Source: a virus (lineage: Duplodnaviria > Heunggongvirae > Uroviricota > Caudoviricetes). Taken from it: a stretch of 36,558 nucleotides of DNA. Positions 1 through 13,840 of this stretch are shown one piece after another (positions within the stretch are counted from its first letter, which is position 1; each line of letters opens with the position of its first letter). The translations under genes and the position numbers were made by a program. Below the pieces are notes generated by a model that saw only the letters and a list, made by a program, of their open reading frames with translations, ran no database searches and was not told where the DNA came from. The stretch is taken from positions 1 to 36,558 of the IMG/VR virus record IMGVR_UViG_2778261416_000006. One strand, given 5' to 3'.

Positions 1-273
1 TCATAAGAGATGTATCAATCTTGCGAGACTCTCACGGATTTTATCGCCGTCATAAATAGCAATCTCTTCAATATTGTTACCAATGAAAGTTTCAGCTGCC
101 TGGATGGCTATCAGTTCAGACATACCAACGTTATCAGCCAGCTGGCGTGCTGCAATGACCTTGCTTTCAAGAGTTAGGATGACCGGCCTGTAGCCTGCGC
201 GTTTGATTTTGATACAGTGTGAAATCAATTTCTCCATAGGTGCGGTGGTCACTTGGAATGCAGTCGTACCCAC
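1..273 (-). CDS. hypothetical small protein (90 aa), function unknown
   Basis: Complete ORF in track with stop codon at 1-3 (tca on + strand). No recognisable motif. Upstream region 274-1100 has no ORF of 60 aa or more, so this may be the surviving end of a decayed gene. Confidence 0.3.
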   Translation of the reverse strand: MGTTAFQVTTAPMEKLISHCIKIKRAGYRPVILTLESKVIAARQLADNVGMSELIAIQAAETFIGNNIEEIAIYDGDKIRESLARLIHLL

Positions 274-1112
274 CTGAAAGGCCCCTTCACGGTCAATGTG
301 TGGATCATTAGCATTGGCCCTGCGACTACTGATTTTAACATCTAGGGAAACGTAGCTGATGTTTGGCTTCGATAAGATTCTGTAGCACCGCCTCAGTGGG
401 GTTGTCAGAACATTCCGCTGCCGCCTTAAGAATATCGCTTACTAGAGATGAAACTGGTTGATTGTAATCCCGGTCGACCGTTACTCTATGTTTATCCGGA
501 TAATTTTGGCGTACACATTAAGTGAAGAAAACTTCAAAGTGATTTGAAACAGATGTTGTATTCACTGGCTCATTTACATTAACTTGAGTGTTGTTCAGCA
601 CATGTTGAAACGCAGCTGTAAGGAAGATGATACAGCCAAGATGTATCCTTCATTATGGGGATTGGCGCGATGACCACCACGGCTTAGCCCGATTGATTAT
701 TTGGAAATTGATTAGAATGCATAATCTGGGCTGAGCTCACTTAAAGTCTCTAATGTTTGACTTGGAGATTTGGGGGGCAGTGGCTTTCAGTTTTGTTAAC
801 TCTAACATCTGGTTTACGTTCCTTTTGGAACAAGAAGCAGAGGTCTGCTAAGTAATGGTTGTACTGCTTGTGATAGGTATGACTGCATGTTCAGCGAGCA
901 AGAATGGCTTAAAAGTTCTGTTACTGAGCACCCCATGAAGTTAGAACGATGTCATAACGTGCACGTAACCGTTGAACTGTTCTCTTACAGATAATCTCTA
1001 CATAGCTATTATTGCTTAGGCGGTAGCTATGTAGATGGTTTTTGTAATATTATATTAAAAGTTCATACAGCGACTATAGCATCATTGCGAAAAATATCAG
1101 GAGGTGAGTTTA

Positions 1113-2567
1113 ATGTTACGAAAAAGCAAACTTACAGAGATATATAAAAGGTTTGGTTTTACTGAAGAAAATACAGGTAACGAAAGTATTGCTGTATATT
1201 CTATTAAAACAGGGCACTACCATAACGCGGACATACTTCCACTAAATAATGAGGTTAATGTAAATCAAACCTTTGAAGAATATAGGCAGTTAGGTTATGC
1301 ATGTCAAATTAAAAAATATCAGTCTTATGAAGAAGCACATAAGGAATTATTTAATGGCTTCTTTAGCGTCGATTCAACTAAAGAAAGGTTGATTAAAGAT
1401 TATAATACTTTCACAGATTCAATTGTAAAAATTCACTCACCTACTGCAACTTATTCCTACATAAATTCAAAATATTACTTAAATGGTGTTATTGGCGAAG
1501 CTAATGTTGTTACGGAAATATTAGAGAGAATACAACATAGGCGTCCAATTCTGTTTTTGATTGAGGCTGCAGCCGGTTTTGGAAAGACTTGCACGGCGTA
1601 TGAATTATTGAGGGAGATTATAGTTAACAATATAGGGAAAATACCATTATTTTCAGAACTATCAAGGAATAGGCAAGCAAAAATATTCAGGTATGTACTA
1701 TTAGATGAAATTGATAGAAGTTTTCCTTTGTTAAGCTCAGCCTTAGTAAGGAATGAAATAAGAGCAGGAAATGTACCAGTTATACTTGACGGGTTTGATG
1801 AACTATTGCATGAAAGTACAAACGGAATTGAAAATAATTATGAAAAAACAGAGCCAATGCTGGAAATAATAAGTGAGCTTCTAACTGATAGTGCAAAAGT
1901 GGTTTTGACAACTCGAAGAACAGCTATATTTGACGGAGATGAATTCCATCAGTGGATAGCATCACATCAAGAAGATTTTGATGTGATAAGAATAAGAATT
2001 CATGAACCACAAATTGAAGACTGGCTTCCAGGTCAACGTTTAGATGAAATTTCATCGACAGGATTTCCTCTTAACAAATTATCAAACCCTGTACTGCTAT
2101 CATTTCTAAGATGCATCGACGACACCGACTTTAATAAAGTTATAAGCGACCCAACAACTATAGTGAGGAAGTATTTTGATTCAATGCTTGAGCGAGAAAG
2201 AAAAAGACAAGATTTATTAATGTCTATTGAAGATCAATATACTATACTAAAAATAATAGCTGACGACATGGTCGAGGGTAACTACACATCTGAGTCTAGA
2301 GAGTATATATCGTTAGTCATAACTGAAAAGAATCAACAACTCTTGGAGGCTACAAGAAAGCTTTATACTGTAGATGAAAGACCAACTACTGACGAATTAG
2401 TTAATAAATTAGCATCGCATGCTCTATTAGATCGGTCAGGCTCAGAAAACCAAGGTATTGGATTTGTTAATGAATTTGTTCTTGGTAATTTTGTTTCTGA
2501 AAATATTATTAATGATAAGTCAAATGAATGGATTGGTGATAAACGTTTTATAGAACCAGCAGTGTAA
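1113..2567 (+). CDS. NACHT-type STAND P-loop NTPase
   Basis: Walker A-like AAAGFGKT, Walker B VPVILDGFDELL (hhhhDGxDE) about 70 aa later, then VVLTTRR matching the NACHT hhhT[ST]R motif. AGGAGG at 1098-1103 precedes ATG 1113; track start 1104 is a GTG. AT-rich codon usage. Confidence 0.65.
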   Translation: MLRKSKLTEIYKRFGFTEENTGNESIAVYSIKTGHYHNADILPLNNEVNVNQTFEEYRQLGYACQIKKYQSYEEAHKELFNGFFSVDSTKERLIKDYNTFTDSIVKIHSPTATYSYINSKYYLNGVIGEANVVTEILERIQHRRPILFLIEAAAGFGKTCTAYELLREIIVNNIGKIPLFSELSRNRQAKIFRYVLLDEIDRSFPLLSSALVRNEIRAGNVPVILDGFDELLHESTNGIENNYEKTEPMLEIISELLTDSAKVVLTTRRTAIFDGDEFHQWIASHQEDFDVIRIRIHEPQIEDWLPGQRLDEISSTGFPLNKLSNPVLLSFLRCIDDTDFNKVISDPTTIVRKYFDSMLERERKRQDLLMSIEDQYTILKIIADDMVEGNYTSESREYISLVITEKNQQLLEATRKLYTVDERPTTDELVNKLASHALLDRSGSENQGIGFVNEFVLGNFVSENIINDKSNEWIGDKRFIEPAV

Positions 2568-2573
2568 TCTTAT

Positions 2574-3218
2574 ATGCCGAGGATCGATGATGAAAAAGAA
2601 TTACTTTGGCATAGCTTAGAGTTTGCTTTATATTTTATGTCAGGTAATGATAAAATCCTTTATAGTCATTTGCTTATAGGAAAAGTTCCATTAGATTTAA
2701 AAAATGATAGTGTTGAGCAATTGTCTATATCAAAACTTTCTTTAGGCGATATAAATATAATACATGATACTATCTTTGTTGATTGTTCGTTTTTTAGCAG
2801 CATATTTACCTGTGGTAATTATAAAAACGTTACATTCGTGAACTGTTCTTTTATAGATTGTAGTTTTAACGAATTAAGTGGTAGGGAAGATATTTATTTT
2901 TTGGGATGTGAATGTGACAATGATGCTATTAATAAAAAATCTGTCGAGATAAACAGTGAAAATGATCACGATATTACAGATTGTGATATTTACATCTTAG
3001 AGAAGTTCTGTCCCAGAGGGAGTGTTAGCTATCATAAGCATCGGCCTATAAAAGGCTTATGTTCTAACAACAATCAATTTCAGTTAAGTGAAATACTCCA
3101 TTCTTTAGATAAATTGAGGAAAGACGGTCTTTTACTTACGCCAGACAAGCGTTCGTTCCTTGAACTTAACATGGCAAGAATATCAGAGATTAAAGCAATT
3201 CTTGGGAGGAATTTCTGA
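2574..3218 (+). CDS. pentapeptide-repeat-like protein
   Basis: Seven consecutive 5-residue units with an aromatic at the same position (FVDCS FFSSI FTCGN YKNVT FVNCS FIDCS FNELS). Starts 7 nt after upstream stop; its stop overlaps the next start (TGATG at 3216-3220). Confidence 0.55.
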   Translation: MPRIDDEKELLWHSLEFALYFMSGNDKILYSHLLIGKVPLDLKNDSVEQLSISKLSLGDINIIHDTIFVDCSFFSSIFTCGNYKNVTFVNCSFIDCSFNELSGREDIYFLGCECDNDAINKKSVEINSENDHDITDCDIYILEKFCPRGSVSYHKHRPIKGLCSNNNQFQLSEILHSLDKLRKDGLLLTPDKRSFLELNMARISEIKAILGRNF

Positions 3219-4123
3219 TGTATAACGGGAATGAATTGCGAATTATTCAAAGTTTGCAAAAAGATATAGAAGATGAACTTAATCGTATTGGATTACTTTA
3301 TCGTTTTTTTTCGAGGACAAAATCAGAAAGCTCAATAATTAAGAAATATGAAAAAGAGCCTAATAAATACTCAGAGGATGGTAAAAAAATTCAAGACTTA
3401 TTTGGGGTTAGGATAATATTATATTTTCCTGATGATTTATTTATTGCTCAAAAAACACTGGAGAAATTATTCGAAATTGAATCTAAAACCGTAGACGAAA
3501 CCACGGCTAATCTCTTTGCGGCAACTCGATGCAATTACGTCTTTAAGTTACCAGAAGTATTATCAAATGATAGTGTCTTATTAAAGAAATATTCTTATAT
3601 TGATACTACTTTTGAAGTCCAATTTAGAACTATTTTATCTGAAGGATGGCATGAAGTTGAGCATGATCTACGCTATAAGTGCAAAGAGGATTGGGTTGAG
3701 CATAATGACCTTAGTCGCGCGCTGAATGGAATTTACGCCTCTTTGGAAACATCTGATTGGGGAATAATGAAGTTATTTGAGGATTTAGCATATAGAAATT
3801 ATAAGTCAAGCGCATGGTCCGCTATGCTAAGAAATAAATTAAGATTGAGAATGGACGATAAGCTTGATGAAAAGATAATTTCAATAATTAATGAGAAAGA
3901 GCTTGGTAAAAAGTTTTATAGAATTGACAGAGATCGTTTGTTATCGTTAATGTTAGATTATAATATTGATATACCAATTAATCTTAATAATATAATTTAC
4001 CTTTGTAATTATTTTTTCATAAAATCTACGGAGCTTCAGGATATAGCCCCTGCTTTAATAATGAAAAAGCTTACAGATGCTGATGAAAAATTCAATAAAA
4101 ATACTATTTTAGCATCTAAATAA
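3218..4123 (+). CDS. RelA/SpoT-like nucleotidyltransferase (synthetase fold), possible toxSAS-type effector
   Basis: N-terminal motifs typical of RelA/SpoT synthetase domain: SRTKSESSIIKKYEK (RxKxxxSxxxK), DLFGVRIILYFPDD (DxxGxRii), EVQFRTILSEGWHEVEHDLRYK (ExQxRT...W...H...YK). C-terminal 130 aa unassigned. Translationally coupled to upstream gene. Confidence 0.65.
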   Translation: MYNGNELRIIQSLQKDIEDELNRIGLLYRFFSRTKSESSIIKKYEKEPNKYSEDGKKIQDLFGVRIILYFPDDLFIAQKTLEKLFEIESKTVDETTANLFAATRCNYVFKLPEVLSNDSVLLKKYSYIDTTFEVQFRTILSEGWHEVEHDLRYKCKEDWVEHNDLSRALNGIYASLETSDWGIMKLFEDLAYRNYKSSAWSAMLRNKLRLRMDDKLDEKIISIINEKELGKKFYRIDRDRLLSLMLDYNIDIPINLNNIIYLCNYFFIKSTELQDIAPALIMKKLTDADEKFNKNTILASK

Positions 4124-4140
4124 TAACTATCTCCGGCTAT

Positions 4141-4170
4141 TAAGTAGGCCTTGTATTTTAGGCCTACTTA
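4141..4170. terminator. perfect 10-bp inverted repeat (taagtaggcc / ggcctactta) with 10-nt loop, putative operon terminator
   Basis: Read directly; lies 18 nt after the stop of the RelA/SpoT-like gene. No clean T-tract follows, so it could be a protein-binding palindrome instead. Confidence 0.35.
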
Positions 4171-5175
4171 AAAAGTTTCATTATGTGAAGTGATGATGAT
4201 AGCAAATCTGATATCTTTATGGTTGGATGCGAGAAAATATTTTTATCCCGACACAACAACTGGTAATGATAGAAAATTTAAACCCAAAAATGCTACAGTA
4301 GCCTCAGCTCACAAACGGAGTATAAAGTGGCGGTTACTCTTTAGTGGGAATACTGTAGATAGTTGATAAACTGGGCTGGATTTTCTTTTCTAACCGAAGG
4401 GAAGAAAAGCAAGGGGAACCCAAAGAAACAAGCGCAGCGGCTTCGTAGGGTTAGCCCTTGCTTCTTTTATAATTGGCATTATTCATTCAAGAACAATAGG
4501 ATCTTCGCTTGTACAAGCGAAGCTATAATAAAAAATCAATTAATTATTTTAAAAGTATTAAGCAAGAGCCTATTGACATTCGTAAAATAAAAGTTATTTT
4601 TAATGTATGCCATAAATAAAAAGTTTTATGTCATATGTATCCTGCACTATGTGCAGTTAATGTGCCACTTGTCCCATATATGGGAATATTGGAAAGGTTA
4701 CTTTGTTTTGAAGTAGCCTTTCGTCCTTCAATATTCACGATTACTTATTGCTATTACCAAGTCCAGTCGAATCGAAGAACATCTTTTATCTGAAACGACT
4801 CCTAATACCAGGTTGAAGCCACAATATCTCTCGCATAAGTAGACCAAAGAAAAATTATGATATTAACTATGTGATTTTTTTTAGTGTTAAGTTGAATAAT
4901 TATATACTGGAGAGTTTTCTGTACACTACCAATTGCTGGTTCATCTGTTCTGCCGCTGATGTTTCTGACTAATCTCCCGGTGACACAGAACTGTCCCTCT
5001 CTACCAGCCTTTATTCGACTCAATGTCCGGCTGCTGATACGCAGTTATCCCTTCGTATCAATGACTGACTCTTAAACGCAATGCTTTGGTTGCTGGCGTA
5101 TCTGACAGCTTCTTCGGCGTGAAGGTCGTTGTGTAAGTATACTTCTTGGTTTATTTAGGCTATATAAAACCATGA

Positions 5176-6072
5176 CTATGACTGGCTGTTTTCAGTAAGA
5201 GTCTTATCATCCAAAGAATTTATTCTAGAAATTCTTTTTAACTCATTAAGATAATCAACCTCGTTTTCTAAGAACCAATGAAGAACTTTAGAGTTGCCAA
5301 GTAATTTATTAATATATGACTGGATTATAACGAATTTCAACATATCTGAACCATACTCGGTTTGAAGTTTTTTCGTTTCTTCCGAAGTTGTTGCCATTTC
5401 TTGTTCCAGACGAAGTATGGTTTTTTTTATGTCCTTTTTATAGGGAGTGTTTTTCCCTTTATTTACTATCATCGATGACGGTGTTGCATCCAAGATGCTC
5501 ATTGCAAATTTTTTACTATAATTATCAAAATTAATCATTGTACCGACTGCTTCAATTTGACGAATTGGCTTCATTTTCCTCAAAACGTCAAATGTAGCCT
5601 TAGGTATAGGTTTATCAGAAAGTTTCGCAATTACACTTGGATCTATGCCGTTCATCACATTAGCTTTATCTTTTATGGCATCAACAGATATGCCCAAAGC
5701 AGCACTAAGTTTTTCAATTGATACTTTTGCCAGAGACTTAATTATCATTCTATGTTCTTCAACTACATTTATATGATTCACTTGTTTGTTAGGAGTGAAA
5801 GCATCATCTATGCTCGAAAGTATACATGGAGCTTTTTCTATATCTAAGTCTTTTAAAGCCTCAACCCTTAAATGGCCATCAAGTATCTTAGTGACATCTT
5901 TATCTTTGTCATAGAATACTATTATTGGTTCAATAATACCCAAGCTTTCGATAGAGGTAACTATTTGATGATATTTATGGCTTCGCTTTACGTTTTCTAA
6001 TAATTCCTTAGATGGAATTAACTTATTAGTTTCCAGGTAAATAAAATTTTTGCCAAAACGTATCTGAATCAT
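5176..6072 (-). CDS. ParB/sulfiredoxin-fold protein
   Basis: N-terminal ParB-like region with ILDGHLRVEAL (GxxRxxA-type box). ATG at 6072-6070; 4-nt overlap with upstream gene. AT-rich. Confidence 0.55.
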   Translation of the reverse strand: MIQIRFGKNFIYLETNKLIPSKELLENVKRSHKYHQIVTSIESLGIIEPIIVFYDKDKDVTKILDGHLRVEALKDLDIEKAPCILSSIDDAFTPNKQVNHINVVEEHRMIIKSLAKVSIEKLSAALGISVDAIKDKANVMNGIDPSVIAKLSDKPIPKATFDVLRKMKPIRQIEAVGTMINFDNYSKKFAMSILDATPSSMIVNKGKNTPYKKDIKKTILRLEQEMATTSEETKKLQTEYGSDMLKFVIIQSYINKLLGNSKVLHWFLENEVDYLNELKRISRINSLDDKTLTENSQS

Positions 6073-6965
6073 TTTGATACCTCTTTGTTTACTGGGTTTA
6101 ATATCTGAGATGGTAGTTCTGAAAGATTCTCTTGTTCAAGTATATTTTGAAAGCTTTTATTCATCATTATGATGTTAAAAATCTCATTTATTATTAGTAG
6201 ATTGGTTTTTATAAATTTCGAGTTGTTATAAACAGATTTATGTTCAGCGATACTATTTTCATAAAGCTCAATCAACTCCTCTGCAGTCATCCTTTTTGAT
6301 GGTTTGTGATAATAAAATCCGGCTGCTTTTGCACCTTTATTCCCAACTGTTCTTTGATTTAGAATGTATTTTATCTTTATAATGTCCCGACTTTTTATTA
6401 ATTTTTTATCATATGCTTCGGTAAGAATATCTTGTGCTTCCTCAGTTTCACATCTTGCAAATTGCACTGCGAGATACAGAGGCAAATTACCCCGTTCGAC
6501 TGCTGAGAGAAGTTTATGCTCTCCCTTATCAAGAAGCATATTAATACTGCTCACCCAGTTCGATGAATATCCAGTAATCTCACTTATTTCGGAGTCTGAA
6601 AGTCCTCTGATTTTCATGTCTTTAATCACCTGTAATAACTCATTAGAACGTGGTCTTCTCCTTGCAATGTTTTCAACTAAACTCATAACGTAAGCATCTT
6701 CTTCTGATACATCTCTTATAATTGCTGGAATAATAGTTTCACCTAATGCAACAAGAGCCTCTATTCTCCCTTGACCACAAATTAAAGCATATTTGAAATC
6801 GTCTTCATCAATAGCTCTTACGCTTATAGGCTTGCTTAATCCTCTTTTTTTTATGCTTTCCTTTATTTCTTCATGCACTACCTTATTTCTTGTTCGTGGG
6901 TTAAGAAATTTTATTTTTGCAATCTCAATTTGAATTATTGGGAATTCATTTTTTTCAGGCAGCAT
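6069..6965 (-). CDS. ParB-like protein with HTH
   Basis: ParB box-like CGQGRIEAL and LVENIARRRPR, followed by helix-turn-helix-like GLSDSEISEITGYSSNWVSSI. ATG at 6965-6963; overlaps recombinase gene end. Confidence 0.6.
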   Translation of the reverse strand: MLPEKNEFPIIQIEIAKIKFLNPRTRNKVVHEEIKESIKKRGLSKPISVRAIDEDDFKYALICGQGRIEALVALGETIIPAIIRDVSEEDAYVMSLVENIARRRPRSNELLQVIKDMKIRGLSDSEISEITGYSSNWVSSINMLLDKGEHKLLSAVERGNLPLYLAVQFARCETEEAQDILTEAYDKKLIKSRDIIKIKYILNQRTVGNKGAKAAGFYYHKPSKRMTAEELIELYENSIAEHKSVYNNSKFIKTNLLIINEIFNIIMMNKSFQNILEQENLSELPSQILNPVNKEVSK

Positions 6966-8511
6966 ATAGTTCCCTCACTTTCATGCGAGTAATAATTTGT
7001 AGAAATTTATCAAGATTATCAAATCTATAGAGATCTAACCGAATGTTGTTTGTTTCCATCATACACATTTTACTATATTCGTTTTCAATCTTTGGTATGA
7101 TATAAAAATCAAGAGGTGAAATATTTTGTGAATTCATTCGTATAACAATTGTTATGTCTGCTTTCTGTGAGTTATCAAACCGGACTTTCCATCTAAGTTT
7201 ACCTGATTTCATATGTATGCATTTAGTAACAAGGACGGAAATTAAAAACTCATCATTGATGTAAAGCATTGGGTAATATTTATACTCGTCTATATGACAG
7301 TTACTTTTTAATATTTCGCCCTTAAAATCCTCAATTATCTCTGAGTAAAATGATCTTAGTGCTTCATTTATTTGGAGATAGCTGTAATCATGTTCTGGCT
7401 TATAACCAATCAAAGTATATGCTCTTAAAAGACCACCAAATCGGGTTCTATAAACAGAAGATGAAGGGCCTGTATCATCTTCATCAATGATAAAGCCTGA
7501 TAGTTTTCCATTAGATTCTAATTTTTCTTTTAGCTTTTCTAATAGATCTTCATTAGTCAAATGAATGGATCGGAGCTGAATTATTTCTTGAGCTTTATTA
7601 TATTTTTTCTTTGAAATAATTGGTTTATATGCCTTGTCACATCTAATCCATTCATGTTTGGGGTTTTTTACAAGCTTACTTTTTAGTTTAGATGAGGTTT
7701 TGTTATATATGTTGTTTCCAATATATTTTTCATTTGTCAAAATTTGATGTATTTTTGCACGAGTCCATGATGTTCCATTTTCTGCAGGTATGCTCTGTTC
7801 ATTTAATCTCTCAGCAATAATGAATTCTGGGACGTTACTATCTATAAAGAGATCATAGATTCTATTTACAATTTTTATTTCATTTTTTGGTCCCGGAATT
7901 AATATTACCCTATCTGTTTGAATACTCTTTCTTTTGCGGAAATTCAATATTTCTTTAGCTATGCCATTTTCGTCTACTAAAAGACGTCTCAGCCCATAAC
8001 CAGCCATACCGCCTTGATGATAACCAAGCTTTATTAAATTTACTTGCCCTATAAATACCTTTTCAGATAGATTCCTGCTGTGATATGCAGCACTTGATCT
8101 TTTTATATTCAGTATAACAGAGGACTCTAAAGGGAAATCTTTAGTGGGTATAGGTTCGGAACAATATATAAGATCTACACCATTTCTTTCAAATAGAAAG
8201 GAATAATATGCAGCTTCATCACTATTTTGAAAACGACCAAAACGGCTCACATCATAAAATAATACAGCCTGTATATCTATTTTCTTTTGTTCTACATCGC
8301 TAAGTAACTGCTGCAAAGAATGCCTGCCTACGATACTGACTCCGCTCTTACCTGCATCATCGTAGGTATAAGCGATTTCCATATTGTTCTTTTCAGCATA
8401 ATCTTTGATATATTCAGACTGATTATGTAAAGAATATTGCTGATGGTCGGTAGACATCCTCAAGTACTGTGCGACCCTAACTCTATGATTTTTTTCATTT
8501 CCGCTAGCCAT
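6955..8511 (-). CDS. large serine recombinase
   Basis: N-terminal resolvase/invertase catalytic motifs: VAQYLRMSTDHQ (catalytic Ser), YDDAGKSG, LFYDVSRFGR. Length 518 aa fits the large serine recombinase class. Track start 8517 is TTG; ATG at 8511 is preceded by GAGG. Confidence 0.75.
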   Translation of the reverse strand: MASGNEKNHRVRVAQYLRMSTDHQQYSLHNQSEYIKDYAEKNNMEIAYTYDDAGKSGVSIVGRHSLQQLLSDVEQKKIDIQAVLFYDVSRFGRFQNSDEAAYYSFLFERNGVDLIYCSEPIPTKDFPLESSVILNIKRSSAAYHSRNLSEKVFIGQVNLIKLGYHQGGMAGYGLRRLLVDENGIAKEILNFRKRKSIQTDRVILIPGPKNEIKIVNRIYDLFIDSNVPEFIIAERLNEQSIPAENGTSWTRAKIHQILTNEKYIGNNIYNKTSSKLKSKLVKNPKHEWIRCDKAYKPIISKKKYNKAQEIIQLRSIHLTNEDLLEKLKEKLESNGKLSGFIIDEDDTGPSSSVYRTRFGGLLRAYTLIGYKPEHDYSYLQINEALRSFYSEIIEDFKGEILKSNCHIDEYKYYPMLYINDEFLISVLVTKCIHMKSGKLRWKVRFDNSQKADITIVIRMNSQNISPLDFYIIPKIENEYSKMCMMETNNIRLDLYRFDNLDKFLQIITRMKVRELYAA

Positions 8512-8793
8512 GCACAAAACCTCATGGATGATTCAATACAATGTAGAGGATAAAATTGATCAAATTTTAACCGAATTCAACTGTTTTATCATTGATTAGA
8601 GCGAATTTGGTAGTTCTTCGAGGTGTATGATAATCGAGAAGAGATGTGAATTATTTAGCTGATATGACCGACAGCTTTCGTTATGTGGCCTCAAGGTACC
8701 CATTTGTAAATGGCTATGCTTAGTCCACATAGGTTAATGGTGTGATCATTAATTCTTCAAATAAATCAAGATAGTTAACCCATCATGGAAGAG

Positions 8794-10023
8794 TTATGCG
8801 GCAATAACTTTGTATTTTTGAGACGAAACATAGTCACTCCACCATTGCATGAGAACCACACGTTCTGTGAGATACTCTGCACGATTGTAGGCTGCAATTA
8901 TTTCATCTTTTTTCGAGTGGGCAAGGGCGGCTTCTAAGACATCAGTTCTAAACTTGCCACACTCCTCAGCCGCCGTTCTAGCGATTGATCGCATACCATG
9001 AGCTACAAGCTCACCTCCGAAGCCCATACGGATTATAGCCGCATTAGCTGTTTGTTCATGCATGTGATTGAGTGGAGCTTTGATACTGGGAAAAACCCAC
9101 TCTCTATGCCCGCTGATGGCTTTCATTGAATCCAAGACTCGCAAAGATTCTTTGCTCAGTGGAACTTTGTGAGGCTTCTTCATTTTCATAAACTCCGCCG
9201 GGATGTTCCACATGCTGGTTTCTATATCAATATCTGACCATCTTGTGCGAACAGCTTCACCAGGGCGAACCCATGTGAGAAGTTGCCACTCAATCAGTAG
9301 CCTTGTTTCTAAACGGATAGAAGCATTGTTTAGAGCAACCAGGAAGCGGGGGAGTTCGGAAGGGGGTAATGCTGGCATATTCTGTTTTTTTGGCTTGCTG
9401 AACCGTTGCCCCAGGTTGTCAGCCGGATTGAATTCTATGAGTTCTTCTGTTGCTGCATAGCGGAAAATTTCATTCAGGCGGGATATGACGCGGCGAAGTG
9501 TTTCAAGGACACCTCGTTTTTCTATGGGGTCTAAATGCTGTTTAAGCATTTTAGGGCGAATCTCCTTAATGGGGGTATCACCCAACGTTGGAAAGATATT
9601 TCTCTCTAGGCTTCGCCAGATGTCGTTAGCATGATCCTGGGAGATGCCTGACGTTTTGACTTTCTCATCAAGCCACTTCTTGGCTACTGCTTGAAATGTA
9701 TGTTCCGTTGCATCCTTAAGGGCATTGGCTTTGTGGGTGTTATGAACTTGTGGGTCTATACCATTTGCAAGCAACGACAAGTACTCATCACGTAAAGCTC
9801 GTGCCTTCGCAAGTGTAAGGTGAGGATAGGTTCCTAAGCTCACCTTAGTTCGCTTTTTGGTCACAGGCACTGCATATCTGAAATACCAATTTTTCTTTCC
9901 TCCCTTCGCTAAGGGGGCGATTCGCAGGAGCAAACCATCGCCGTCAAAAAGGTTAACCTCTTTCTCGGCAGGTTTGGTGCTTTTGATTTCAGTGTCAGTG
10001 AGCTTCTTAGCGATTTTTGCCAT
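8794..10023 (-). CDS. P4-type tyrosine integrase (IntA/CP4-57-like)
   Basis: N-terminus MAKIAKKLTDTEIK and overall pattern resemble E. coli IntA as I recall it. C-terminal HGMRSIARTAA (HxxR) and AYNRAEYLTERVVLMQWW. Start placed at ATG 10023 rather than track start 10167. Confidence 0.8.
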   Translation of the reverse strand: MAKIAKKLTDTEIKSTKPAEKEVNLFDGDGLLLRIAPLAKGGKKNWYFRYAVPVTKKRTKVSLGTYPHLTLAKARALRDEYLSLLANGIDPQVHNTHKANALKDATEHTFQAVAKKWLDEKVKTSGISQDHANDIWRSLERNIFPTLGDTPIKEIRPKMLKQHLDPIEKRGVLETLRRVISRLNEIFRYAATEELIEFNPADNLGQRFSKPKKQNMPALPPSELPRFLVALNNASIRLETRLLIEWQLLTWVRPGEAVRTRWSDIDIETSMWNIPAEFMKMKKPHKVPLSKESLRVLDSMKAISGHREWVFPSIKAPLNHMHEQTANAAIIRMGFGGELVAHGMRSIARTAAEECGKFRTDVLEAALAHSKKDEIIAAYNRAEYLTERVVLMQWWSDYVSSQKYKVIAA

Positions 10024-10189
10024 GTTTGGGACCCTCATGTTTTGGACCCTTTGTGTTGGGTCCCAAAAAGGGTGCCATAACGAGTAGATTCTAGCAATTC
10101 TCGGTAGACTACTATAGACGTAAAAAAGCCCGCAAGGCTGGTTCCATGCGGGCTTGATAGACTTCACTGAACTTCAATATATCAAAAAT

Positions 10190-10218
10190 TGGTGGAGCTG
10201 GCGGGAGTTGAACCCGCG
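10190..10218 (-). repeat. ssrA: 29-nt copy of the 3' end of the tmRNA gene ssrA (attachment-site core)
   Basis: Minus strand reads CGCGGGTTCAACTCCCGCCAGCTCCACCA, matching the T-arm, 3' acceptor strand and CCA end of E. coli ssrA as recalled. Sequence beyond (10219 onward) is not ssrA. Lies about 165 bp from the integrase start. Confidence 0.7.
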
Positions 10219-10289
10219 TTCTTTTTACTTTATCTTTATGTTTTATAAGAGTTTTACAGGGCGCTGATACGATGCGTAGCTTTAACGGA

Positions 10290-11060
10290 TCTTTATTGCA
10301 GGATATATCCTAAAATGACTAGGCTGTGTCCCTTAATTACGTAACCGTTGATAAAAGAATCGGATGCAGCCAGTTTTAGCATCGCCAGATAATTTCTCGC
10401 CGTTTTGTCGTAACGCATAGCAATGCGGCGGTATTCTTTCAGGCGACCAAAACACCGTTCAACGACGTTGTGATTGCGATACGCATCACGATCAATCCGT
10501 GCACGTCCATCTGATGCCATTTTTTTCATTTGAGTTTCGGGGGATGATTGCCTTTATGCCTTTATTTTTCAGCTCGTTACGCGAACTAGCTTTCATGAGA
10601 CTGCCCGGGGCTTAGTACGATATTTAACGGGAGGCCGCTTCCGTCTGTTGCCAGATGGATTTTGGTGCCCAAACCGCCTCGAGAGCGACCCTGCCCATTA
10701 TCTCCGTCGATATTGGGATGTTTTTTTGAGCCCCGTCGGCGCATTTAAACGCCCGGATATTACTACCATTCAGCGCTGTGGCAGACCAGTCAACAAAGCT
10801 GTTCGCATCAAGTAGTGAAAGCAATCTGTTGAAAATGATGTTAATTACGCCTGACTTTGACCAACTGTTAAAGCGGTTATAAACGGTTTACCATGGCCCA
10901 TATCGTTCGGGTAAATCGCGCCATGGTGTGCCGGAACACAACACCAGAACATGCCATTGATGATTTTACGATGCTCTGCCCATGAGATACCTGCCCGTCG
11001 TGTGACAGGTTCTGGGGCAACAAGGGGGTGATGATGGTCTATACTTCATCGGGGAGGTCG
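10290..11060 (-). mobile_element. degraded IS5-family (IS427-like) transposase remnant
   Basis: Minus-strand translations give GRSRGGLGTKIHLATDGSGLPLNIVLSPGQSHES and DRDAYRNHNVVERCFGRLKEYRRIAMRYDKTARNYLAMLKLAA, typical of IS5-family DDE transposases, but split over several frames with in-frame stops. Boundaries approximate. Confidence 0.6.
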
Positions 11061-11324
11061 TAGCGAGCCATGATTCAATATGTTGTGGAAACAGGCCGTT
11101 ACTATAGATCAAGCTATTACGGGACACAGCCTTAAGTTATTTTATCGATTGACGATATATTTTAAAGAGAATGGTGATTTTATTATCAATAAAAACAATA
11201 AATTAAACGTTACTGCTTTTTTAACGGTTAAGCAACATCTCTTGAAAAATAAGTTTATAGTCATTATTATACGCCAACTTAGCTGGCCCTTGGATGGGTT
11301 ATTCTGCAAAATTAGAAGAATAAG

Positions 11325-11894
11325 ATGAACCAGTGCACACAGTGGTTGGGGTATCATGGCACCAGTGTTTTATGTGCTAATTCAATCATTAATACAAATT
11401 TTAATGTCAGTAGACAAGAAAATGATTGGCTTGGTACCGGAGCCTATTTTTTCATTGAGTCGCCGGGATTGTTGGCCCCAGAAGAAAAAGCGGCTCAATG
11501 GGCTAACATTAGGGCTAGTAATGCGAGACCTAACTATACTAATCTAGCAGTGTTAGAAGCTACCATTGAAGTTGAGCAGTATCTTGACTTAGACAATGAT
11601 GAGCACATAGCCGCTCTCAACAAAGTGAGAGAGGTTTACATGGAAATCATGAAGTCTGAGGGTAAGAAACCAACTGGTAACAGATTGTTTGACAAATGCT
11701 GTTTTTGTAACTATGTAATGCATGAGCATGGTATTGACGCCCTGATACGTAAAGAGTATATCAAAACTACAAGAGAGGAGCTTGATTATGGTTTTGAAGG
11801 GGGAGTTCCTAACTGCAGAGTCTTATGCGTTAAAGACCCTAAAGCGAGTGTTAAGTCCATACGATTCGCGGTCGAGAGAAGGAGAGTACGATGA
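11325..11894 (+). CDS. putative ADP-ribosyltransferase-fold (H-Y-E class, PARP/DarT-like) toxin candidate
   Basis: YHGTSVLCANSIINTNF followed by WLGTGAYFF resembles the HG[ST]...GxGxYF signature of H-Y-E ADP-ribosyltransferases; assignment by eye only. AT-rich; stop overlaps next start (ATGA). Confidence 0.45.
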   Translation: MNQCTQWLGYHGTSVLCANSIINTNFNVSRQENDWLGTGAYFFIESPGLLAPEEKAAQWANIRASNARPNYTNLAVLEATIEVEQYLDLDNDEHIAALNKVREVYMEIMKSEGKKPTGNRLFDKCCFCNYVMHEHGIDALIRKEYIKTTREELDYGFEGGVPNCRVLCVKDPKASVKSIRFAVERRRVR

Positions 11895-12256
11895 ACATCA
11901 ATTTATGGCTCGAAAAGACCTTGGACTCTATAAGGTCAACTGATCCGAAAGCTCTCATGGTGAGGATGGAGCGGTATGGATTGATTGAAGATGATGTTAA
12001 TAAAAATAAGGAAATGTCTCATTCTGGTTATGAATATACAGTTTGTGAGGATCTTCCTAGAGAGGTTCCTTTTGCGTCCTATTTTTTCATTGATAACGCT
12101 TCGTATCATGAAGAATCTATAAATGCTTTATCCGTGCAGTTGACTTTCACAACAGCGCCGCGTGAAGCGGCGTTTTCATTGGCTTCACGTCCAGTGTTTT
12201 ATACATCAGAGATTGCTTGTGGAAATTCTCTGGATCATATTGCCCAGGCTGCTTAA
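11891..12256 (+). CDS. hypothetical protein, candidate antitoxin or adaptor
   Basis: ATG 11891 preceded by AAGGAG; coupled to flanking genes. No motif recognised. Confidence 0.45.
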   Translation: MNINLWLEKTLDSIRSTDPKALMVRMERYGLIEDDVNKNKEMSHSGYEYTVCEDLPREVPFASYFFIDNASYHEESINALSVQLTFTTAPREAAFSLASRPVFYTSEIACGNSLDHIAQAA

Positions 12257-12257
12257 T

Positions 12258-12644
12258 ATGAAATTTCAATTAAATAAGAATCAAATAGAAAAGTTAAGTA
12301 TTGAACATTTTATAAATGAATCATCTATTAAAAACAGTTTTTCATTTTCACATACATGCAAGTATGATGAAGAAAAGAATAATGAGTTTATCATTTCTTT
12401 TAAATTTGAACTTACATCTGACAATGGTTTTAAACTTATTTTTACGCATAATTTCTTTTTTGAATGCGATGAACCAATTACAGAAGAGTTTTTACAGTCA
12501 CATTACACATCAGTGAACGCTCCTGCTATTGCCTATCCTTATGTAAGAGCATTTGTGGCAACATTACTTTTAAACGCAGGCTTAGAGTCTGTTTTATTGC
12601 CTGCTGTTAATTTTGTTGAGCATGCTAAATCGCAAGATAAATGA
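12258..12644 (+). CDS. SecB-like chaperone
   Basis: C-terminal AIAYPYVRAFVATLLLNAGLESVLLPAVNF parallels SecB [30 protein letters not shown]. ATG sits 1 nt after upstream stop; the track ORF 12162-12644 is treated as an N-terminal over-extension. Confidence 0.6.
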   Translation: MKFQLNKNQIEKLSIEHFINESSIKNSFSFSHTCKYDEEKNNEFIISFKFELTSDNGFKLIFTHNFFFECDEPITEEFLQSHYTSVNAPAIAYPYVRAFVATLLLNAGLESVLLPAVNFVEHAKSQDK

Positions 12645-12649
12645 TTAAA

Positions 12650-12674
12650 ATGAGAGCAAATAAATTGCTCTCAT
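12650..12674. terminator. bidirectional hairpin terminator between convergent genes
   Basis: 9-bp stem atgagagca / tgctctcat with 7-nt loop, flanked by A-run upstream and T-rich downstream; overlaps integrase stop codon. Confidence 0.5.
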
Positions 12675-13840
12675 TTATACATGATATCATTTATGGTATT
12701 TTCGTTATCGTACTCTTTTAAATATCTTCCATAATGCCTAAATAGCATTTCTGGTCCTTTATGTCCCATTTGTCCAGCAAGCCAAAATAGGTTCGCCCCT
12801 TGACTGATATGGCGAGTAGCGAATGTGTGTCTCGTTTGATATGGATTACGGTATCTGATTCCTGCTTTTCTCAATATTGGCACCCATGCTTTTTTCCTAA
12901 TTGCATCAGCACTTGCCCAGGGTTTATTGGTCTTTGGATCTTCAAAGACAGTAGCATTCTTTATGAATGTAAATGGCTTCTGGTTTATCAACGCCAACAT
13001 TGCTTCTTCAGTCAGTTCAACTTTACGGGTACCGGCTTTTGTCTTTGTTCCTTTGATAACTCCGACAACACTTGCGCTCTGAACATGGGCTGTTTTTCCA
13101 ACAAAGTCGATATCATGCCATCGTAGGGCACATAATTCAGAACTACGCAGGCCTGTATGTATGGCGAACCGGAACAGATTTTCCCATTGTTTGTTTCCGG
13201 CTGCTGCTAGTAATGCATCAACTTCTGCTGGTGATAGCGGATCAACTAAGTAGCTGCTTTCTGCTTCTGACTTATCACTTTGGTAGCGCGAAGCTGTTAC
13301 TAACGATACGGGGTTAATTTGAAGTACCCCATCGGTCACGGCTTCATCAAGTGCTGACCGCAGGAAAGATAACTGGTTGCGAATGGTTTTTAAGGTCGTT
13401 TTCTGGCTTTGAATCCACGCTTTCAGGGTTGCTGGTGTTAATTCACTTGCAGGGCAAATGTGAAGTGAGGCTAACGCACTACGGCATTTTTTATAACCAC
13501 CGATCGTGGATGGTGAAAGTTTCCTCGTTTCGCAGATTTCAAGATATTCGTCTAGGTACATTTTTACCGTTTTGCCAGCGGCAGCATTACCAAAAATTTT
13601 CAAACGAGCAGAACGGGGAAAATATTCTGCATAAATGAATGTTCCCCTTTCGATCTTATTATGGATTTCGCCGAGTGTACGCTCGGCGTATTTAATGTTC
13701 TTTGGTGTTACTTCCAGATTGGAAAGCGGCTCACGACATCTAACTCCTTTGTAGGTGAAAGTTATATTGATCGTTTCTCCTTGGCGGTGTTTCCTGATTG
13801 TTACGCCGCGCGGTAGTTTGAGCAGTTTTGTCTGGCCCAT
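12671..13840 (-). CDS. lambda-type tyrosine integrase
   Basis: C-terminal catalytic region RHTFATRHISQG (HxxR) and MLFRHYGRYL (Tyr); N-terminal arm-binding-like region. ATG at 13840. Confidence 0.85.
   Translation of the reverse strand: MGQTKLLKLPRGVTIRKHRQGETINITFTYKGVRCREPLSNLEVTPKNIKYAERTLGEIHNKIERGTFIYAEYFPRSARLKIFGNAAAGKTVKMYLDEYLEICETRKLSPSTIGGYKKCRSALASLHICPASELTPATLKAWIQSQKTTLKTIRNQLSFLRSALDEAVTDGVLQINPVSLVTASRYQSDKSEAESSYLVDPLSPAEVDALLAAAGNKQWENLFRFAIHTGLRSSELCALRWHDIDFVGKTAHVQSASVVGVIKGTKTKAGTRKVELTEEAMLALINQKPFTFIKNATVFEDPKTNKPWASADAIRKKAWVPILRKAGIRYRNPYQTRHTFATRHISQGANLFWLAGQMGHKGPEMLFRHYGRYLKEYDNENTINDIMYK

Follow-up and report, generated by a model that had tools for sequence, protein, structure and literature searches.

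The three-gene operon at positions 11325-12644 of the IMG/VR virus record IMGVR_UViG_2778261416_000006, a sequence of 36,558 nucleotides (nt) analysed at its full length and called the window below, is almost certainly CmdTAC, the anti-phage toxin-antitoxin-chaperone (TAC) system of Escherichia coli O112ab:H26, present here as cargo next to the integrase gene of a lambdoid prophage. Its three coding sequences are identical in DNA and translation to those for WP_097333619.1, WP_053886482.1 and WP_053886483.1 (RefSeq locus L001, 15126-16445), the accessions under which CmdT, CmdA and CmdC of E. coli O112ab:H26 were published (Mets et al. 2024, doi 10.1101/2024.02.24.581848); in an identity check, the proteins encoded by the window did not differ from the published ones. 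The native Shine-Dalgarno string printed by Mets et al. is located at window positions 11311-11324, and their CmdA mutant 120AA121/DD is consistent with a 121-residue cmdA product ending in AA. It is the agreement of the three accessions, the Shine-Dalgarno string and the mutant numbering that equates the window operon with the published system. Among 5,426 complete E. coli genomes, blastn with the operon gave only two copies, both 100% identical to it; ECOR22-type cmdTAC, the prototype discussed below, was not detectable at the DNA level in this search.

The system is thus already known, having been found, named and biochemically characterized between 2022 and 2024. PD-T4-9, the original name of CmdTAC, came from E. 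coli ECOR22 by functional selection, and was already recognized as a TAC system with a toxin resembling ADP-ribosyltransferases (ARTs) (Vassallo et al. 2022, PMC9519451). The same study describes CmdTAC homologues as a toxin, a small second open reading frame (ORF) and a chaperone resembling SecB, in that order, which is what the window operon contains. The original prediction, made from the window sequence alone, proposed a tripartite module in the order toxin, antitoxin, chaperone, and this is borne out by the gene order and by the homology of CmdT and CmdC. Its statement that known systems of this kind use HigB, MqsR or HicA toxins has been overtaken, as a TAC system with an ART toxin, CmdTAC itself, was described in 2022 (PMC9519451) and 2024 (Vassallo, Doering and Laub, PMC11618068). 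As a discovery the operon has little value, since one published study already worked with exactly the proteins that the window encodes. What is new here is the remote relationship of this CmdT to that of the ECOR22 prototype, the wide distribution of its clade across phyla, and the swappable cargo slot beside the integrase.

Operon layout and the three proteins

The operon consists of the following features.

11311-11324, + strand: native weak Shine-Dalgarno region ATTAGAAGAATAAG, directly 5' of the cmdT ATG and the same string as in Mets et al. 2024
11325-11894, + strand: cmdT (gene 1), 189 amino acids (aa), WP_097333619.1, ART toxin with motif residues H11 and Y41 and with E144 and N163 as candidates for the third catalytic residue
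11891-12256, + strand: cmdA (gene 2), 121 aa, WP_053886482.1, antitoxin with a short N-terminal helical part, a C-terminal tail rich in aromatic and acidic residues, and an Ala-Ala end
12258-12644, + strand: cmdC (gene 3), 128 aa, WP_053886483.1, SecB-like chaperone

As predicted, the three genes are coupled and AT-rich: the cmdT stop and the cmdA start share an ATGA overlap, a single nucleotide separates the cmdA TAA from the cmdC ATG, and the GC fraction is 0.374 in the operon and 0.287 in cmdC alone, against 0.445 in the whole window. For cmdC we use the ATG at 12258, which is annotated in RefSeq and biologically sensible; the ORF listing runs further upstream, to a GTG at 12162.

CmdT has an ADP-ribosyltransferase fold, as had been proposed from an HGT ... 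GxGxYF pattern in gene 1. The pattern is present at residues 11-13 (H11-G12-T13) and 37-43 (G37-T-G39-A-Y41-F42-F43), and across 159 family members H11 is conserved in 156 and both G37 and Y41 in all; together with G39 and N163, these residues are invariant or nearly so in the O112ab:H26-type clade. Family members also match the Pfam models PARP, Tox-ART-HYD1 and Tpt1 weakly. The more specific assignment to the H-Y-E class holds for its histidine and tyrosine, H11 and Y41, and is not settled for its glutamate. E144, part of an 'EYI' motif that we take to resemble the catalytic-glutamate motifs of diphtheria toxin and PARP1, is shared by 20 of the 159 members, all in the close subfamily, whereas N163, at the start of the strand that follows E144, occurs in 158. 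Conservation, global hhalign alignment and the order of secondary-structure elements, none of them a residue-level superposition, leave both E144 and N163 as candidates for the third residue. The ART-fold relatives listed for gene 1 include other diphtheria-toxin homologues, RES-domain toxins, Tpt1, PARP10, PARP15, tankyrase and exotoxin A. A sequence search of gene 1 against PDB chains gave nothing meaningful, and the family profile gave spurious matches to influenza HA2 and weak matches to the N-terminal part of PARP10/14/15 (E 0.02-0.08); no solved CmdT structure was detectable by sequence in the PDB search. No model of the HigB/RelE, MqsR or HicA families in Pfam, NCBIfam or PADLOC matches gene 1.

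CmdA has no match in Pfam (macrodomain and NADAR models among them), in NCBIfam or in PADLOC, including its PD-T4-9_B model. Its last 86 residues (36-121) contain 11 aromatic and 11 acidic residues and end in ...HIAQAA, and an Ala-Ala end is found in 42 of 59 antitoxins of the O112ab:H26-type clade and in 17 of 17 of the ECOR22-type clade. To judge from these sequence features, namely a helical N-terminus, a long and apparently disordered tail and an Ala-Ala ClpXP degron, the aromatic and acid-rich tail is the putative chaperone-addiction region.

The SecB-like nature of gene 3 had been named as one of the points on which the prediction could fall, and the profile searches came out positive: CmdC matches Pfam SecB (PF02556) at E=4.3e-6 with 27.1 bits, the gathering cut-off being 26, and the PADLOC model PD-T4-9_C at E=3.7e-35 over residues 1-126. 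Its identity with the CmdC proteins of the ECOR22 type and of Vibrio is 33-38%. In RefSeq, whose labels come from PGAP, CmdT and CmdA are each a 'hypothetical protein' and CmdC is a 'protein-export chaperone SecB'. Because of these labels and the non-significant PADLOC v2 scores of the toxin and antitoxin, routine annotation likely misses CmdTAC; that is, an experimentally validated defence system is likely overlooked.

Upstream of the operon, a consensus scan picks out one possible promoter.

11242-11270, + strand: candidate sigma-70 promoter (TTGAAA, 17-nt spacer, TATTAT), 10 of 12 consensus matches, about 55 nt upstream of cmdT, from a consensus scan only

The promoter and terminator scan of the operon region yielded nothing above shuffled expectation, with fewer sigma-70-type sites than in the shuffled controls, and the candidate at 11242-11270 is a lead suggested by its sequence, not evidence of function.

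Relation to the ECOR22 prototype and mode of action

Since the two experimentally studied CmdT proteins are only remote homologues, their relationship matters when chemistry or a capsid trigger is carried across from one to the other. The ECOR22-type system is represented here by the near-identical cmdTAC of E. coli N2250 (locus L006), found through a published Y41A mutagenesis primer; its T, A and C proteins score 4e-97, 3e-38 and 7e-61 against the PADLOC PD-T4-9 models. This type is also rare, the 60-nt primer region occurring in 3 of 5,426 complete E. coli genomes, and in N2250 it lies at 3905-5118 of the locus, flanked by a DinI-like gene and by a P2-like prophage's portal gene, in the known hotspot for P2 cargo.

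Between the window and the ECOR22-type system, the chaperones are related at the level of pairwise comparison (33% identity, E=3e-20, BLASTP). For the toxins, the alignment of broad profiles built from 159 window-type and 119 ECOR22-type CmdT sequences gives an hhalign probability of 98.5% (E=3e-15, 129 columns), and 98.8% over 163 columns in global mode. AlphaFold2 (AF2) models of both types present the same order of secondary-structure elements. At the profile level, the homology of the two toxins is secure, though remote. It becomes clear only once broad profiles of both clades are used: a narrow profile of the 12-sequence subfamily is weak against a single Vibrio CmdT (hhalign probability 6%), and in hmmsearch against the ECOR22-type and Vibrio CmdT it aligns residues 6-45 only. 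The antitoxins show no BLASTP match and are weakly related by hhalign (29% probability), with 28 N-terminal residues in register; CmdA is highly variable according to the original authors (PMC9519451).

The proteins in the window have been characterized directly, and the following results are all from Mets et al. 2024 (10.1101/2024.02.24.581848), a companion to the work on ECOR22 that took up a second CmdTAC. The operon protects E. coli K-12 against the Tevenvirinae Bas43, T4 and T6 and against the siphovirus Bas34, and this defence is lost in a clpX deletion strain. CmdTA is toxic, and its toxicity needs ClpX, ClpP and the terminal AA of CmdA, the 120AA121/DD mutation making CmdTA non-toxic. 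CmdT specifically blocks 35S-Met incorporation and inhibits reconstituted cell-free translation strictly with NAD+. It labels mRNA and a 24-nt RNA oligo in a sequence-specific and NAD+-dependent manner, and does not label the DNA version of the oligo, its reverse complement, homopolymers or proteins. Also, the non-cognate chaperone HigC can stand in for CmdC on CmdTA and broadens the defence spectrum. For the ECOR22 system, it has been reported that CmdC stabilizes CmdA, that the T4 major capsid protein Gp23 titrates CmdC, that ClpP degrades CmdA, and that CmdT ADP-ribosylates the N6 of adenine in GA dinucleotides of mRNA, which blocks translation (PMC11618068).

Taken with the sequence features above, these reports give the most likely account of how the window operon works. 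In the uninfected cell, CmdC would hold the disordered chaperone-addiction tail of CmdA and so shield the antitoxin from ClpXP, which would recognize the terminal Ala-Ala; CmdA would then keep CmdT inactive. Infection by a T-even phage (Tevenvirinae) would divert CmdC; if the ECOR22 homologue is a guide, freshly synthesized major capsid protein would be what diverts it. CmdA would then be degraded, and the freed CmdT would ADP-ribosylate single-stranded mRNA using NAD+, with the result that translation would stop and the infection would be aborted. For the O112ab:H26 system, a capsid-protein trigger and modification of N6-adenine in GA are features presumed from its homology with the ECOR22 system.

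Several observations weigh against this reading of the operon. In BLASTP, the window CmdT reaches its ECOR22-type counterpart at E=0.016 through a 13-residue WLxxGxYF match only, which is not significant; PADLOC PD-T4-9_A scores the window CmdT at E=0.007 only, and PD-T4-9_B misses CmdA. Cognate CmdC neutralizes CmdTA partially, and the preprint did not determine the trigger of the O112ab:H26 system or the exact nucleotide, atom and motif that its toxin modifies (Mets et al. 2024, 10.1101/2024.02.24.581848). To assume the prototype's GA/N6-adenine chemistry and Gp23 trigger for the window system is to extrapolate, because its CmdT lacks significant pairwise similarity to that of ECOR22, the PD-T4-9_A match is weak and PD-T4-9_B does not match.

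These observations leave some room for the view that the operon is a functionally distinct ART-type TAC system which merely resembles CmdTAC, with a toxin acting on another RNA motif, atom or class of nucleic acid and a chaperone that senses another phage protein. The lack of significant pairwise similarity between the toxins and antitoxins of the two types is in keeping with such a view, as are their chaperones at just 33% identity, the different conserved residues in the C-terminal third of the toxin (N163 in 158 of 159 sequences; Q166 in 119 of 119, with D139, in the ECOR22 type), and the protection against Bas34, given that the ECOR22 system showed no activity against phages outside Tevenvirinae. 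We nevertheless consider it unlikely, as the very same toxin has been shown to modify mRNA and single-stranded RNA with NAD+ and sequence specificity and to block translation (Mets et al. 2024), the O112ab:H26 system and the prototype act against the same T-even phages, and the two toxins show strong profile-profile homology and matching predicted topologies.

Two other readings fare far worse. Gene 1 could encode a DarT-like enzyme acting on DNA, or an enzyme akin to diphtheria toxin acting on protein, with nothing more than coupling to tie it to the chaperone, and a DarT1-NADAR system does occupy the same genomic slot in related prophages. Gene 2, as described above, has neither a macrodomain nor a NADAR match, and the published biochemistry refutes this reading, as CmdT modifies no DNA oligo and none of the proteins of the PURE system and inhibits translation rather than replication; we regard it as very improbable. 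Hardly worth any credence is the reading of gene 3 as a paralogue of the housekeeping export SecB preceded by unrelated hypothetical genes, which could appeal to the RefSeq names and the Pfam SecB match. By its profile scores CmdC is not a housekeeping export SecB, because it falls far under the cut-offs of the NCBIfam equivalog models (24.4 bits with a cut-off of 181, and 23.2 bits with a cut-off of 143) and matches PD-T4-9_C far more strongly. Tight coupling of the three genes, synteny kept across phyla, and the published toxicity and neutralization data complete the case by which the housekeeping reading is refuted. CmdTAC of E. coli O112ab:H26 thus remains the preferred identification.

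Clade distribution and genomic setting

An exhaustive profile search with the window CmdT subfamily finds 1,494 cluster representatives at E<=0.001, and the CmdT clade spans Proteobacteria, Bacteroidota, Cyanobacteria, Firmicutes and some archaeal metagenome-assembled genomes; both CmdT clades are also present on viral contigs. A scan of one genome per species yielded 80 loci with CmdT relatives, from many phyla. Synteny was judged on the 73 that have at least 900 nt downstream, by whether a SecB-like gene lies no more than 700 nt further on in the orientation of the toxin gene. Such a gene follows the toxin in 51 of the 73, with room left for an antitoxin of 65-135 aa. The arrangement of toxin, small ORF and SecB-like gene is not due to chance, because the same order recurs in these 51 loci across many phyla. 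The other 22 (about 30%), many of them cyanobacterial, show no detectable SecB-like gene within 700 nt downstream.

Loci without a SecB-like gene: L031, L032, L035, L046, L048, L050, L051, L055-L057, L060, L063, L070-L072, L075-L078, L080, L082, L084, L086

It is possible, if still on the doubtful side, that the O112ab:H26-type clade, which is separate from the ECOR22 type and has another conserved catalytic-site signature towards the C-terminus (invariant N163 versus invariant Q166), differs from it in RNA motif or chemistry, that its chaperone senses another trigger, and that the loci without SecB are chaperone-independent, two-gene ART toxin-antitoxin systems. The extra activity against the siphovirus Bas34 hints at a different trigger.

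In the window, the operon lies between the following landmarks.

10190-10218, + strand: 29-nt copy of the 3' end of ssrA (transfer-messenger RNA, tmRNA), reverse complement; single exact copy in the window, an attachment-site remnant
12671-13840, - strand: site-specific integrase of the lambdoid prophage, convergent with cmdC across a 26-nt gap, from the RefSeq annotation of the matching locus
10219-12670 in the window (L127 1094-2410, L129 1594-2910 and L128 2144-2923 in related loci): cargo slot, from the attachment-site remnant or island integrase to the 3' end of the prophage integrase

In related prophages that lack cmdTAC, similarity to the window begins at about 12704-12729 and extends rightwards only, and the slot is filled differently: strains PSS-10 and C7 of E. 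coli have DarT1-NADAR (DarTG1), and H1827/12 has one gene, for a 259-aa hypothetical protein. We infer that prophages of this family carry any of several defence cassettes at their integrase end, cmdTAC among them, and that these can replace one another. The slot resembles a defence-cargo hotspot, and two of the three cassettes seen in it are systems with ART toxins.

The upstream island lies on one side of the ssrA-derived remnant; on the other are the IS5 remnant, cmdTAC and the prophage. Homology to E. coli NCTC9100 stops at 10190-10218, inside annotated ssrA, and ARAGORN finds no intact tmRNA or transfer RNA gene in the window; an ssrA fragment without an intact gene suggests that island and prophage integrated in tandem at ssrA and that the intact gene is located outside the window. 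Between the remnant and the cmdT promoter region is a degenerate IS5-family transposase gene (10293-11023), frameshifted and with internal stops; both genomes with this cmdTAC have it.

Positions 1-10219 form an integrative island, present in at least 54 complete genomes, that ends in the ssrA fragment and contains genes with NACHT and RelA/SpoT domains, two ParB-like genes, and genes for a recombinase and an integrase. The NACHT gene and the RelA/SpoT-domain (alarmone-synthetase-like) gene that follows it (1104-4123) are a candidate two-gene defence module, the second gene having a weak match to PADLOC PDC-S33 (E=8e-5). In NCTC9100 the NACHT gene is a single coding sequence of 2,106 nt; in the window, a C-to-T change (CAA to TAA) at 2565-2567 splits it, within 1104-3218, into ORFs of 487 aa and 214 aa, and it is probably inactivated in the window strain. 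The minus strand at 5176-8517 encodes a 520-aa protein of the serine recombinase family followed by two adjacent ParB/RepB/Spo0J-like genes of 298 aa each, the first of which weakly matches a PADLOC type II methyltransferase model over its N-terminal 80 residues (E=4.5e-6).

Comparison with known systems

The classical TAC systems, HigBAC (Mycobacterium tuberculosis; E. coli NT1F31), MqsRAC and HicAB-SecB, share with CmdTAC a SecB-like chaperone that stabilizes an antitoxin with a C-terminal chaperone-addiction extension, and some of them are likewise anti-phage. They differ in having an RNase toxin of the HigB, MqsR or HicA type in place of an ADP-ribosyltransferase, and genes 1 and 2 of the operon have no Pfam match to those families. 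DarTG is, like CmdTAC, an anti-phage toxin-antitoxin system with an ART-fold toxin; DarT, however, ADP-ribosylates thymidine or guanosine in single-stranded DNA and is paired with a macrodomain or NADAR antitoxin. The combination of a DarT-family toxin with such an antitoxin is absent from the window operon, which is not a DarTG system.

The ECOR22 system has the same T-A-C order, with proteins of similar size (192, 77 and 129 aa in the ECOR22 type and 189, 121 and 128 aa in the window). Its toxin also has an ART fold, in which H and Y fall at positions that match those of the window CmdT; the Y41 that was mutated in ECOR22 aligns with Y41 of the window. Both have a SecB-like chaperone and an antitoxin with an Ala-Ala end and Clp dependence, and the ECOR22 and O112ab:H26 systems both ADP-ribosylate mRNA and both defend against T-even phages. 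On the other hand, the window antitoxin is 44 residues longer; in the C-terminal third of the toxin, the window clade conserves N163 where the ECOR22-type clade, in which H11 and Y43 are also conserved, has Q166 and D139; and the two types differ in location, a hotspot of a P2-like prophage for ECOR22 and a lambdoid prophage's integrase end for the window. The Gp23 trigger and the modification of N6-adenine in GA have been established for the ECOR22 type only, and protection against the siphovirus Bas34 is a property of the O112ab:H26 system, the ECOR22 system giving no protection outside Tevenvirinae (PMC11618068).

With CmdTAC of E. coli O112ab:H26 itself, the window operon shares its proteins, its coding DNA and its Shine-Dalgarno string, with no difference at the sequence level, and both are described as prophage-associated. 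To this the window adds the setting in the present strain, with the ssrA attachment-site remnant and the IS5 remnant on one side of the operon and the lambdoid prophage integrase on the other.

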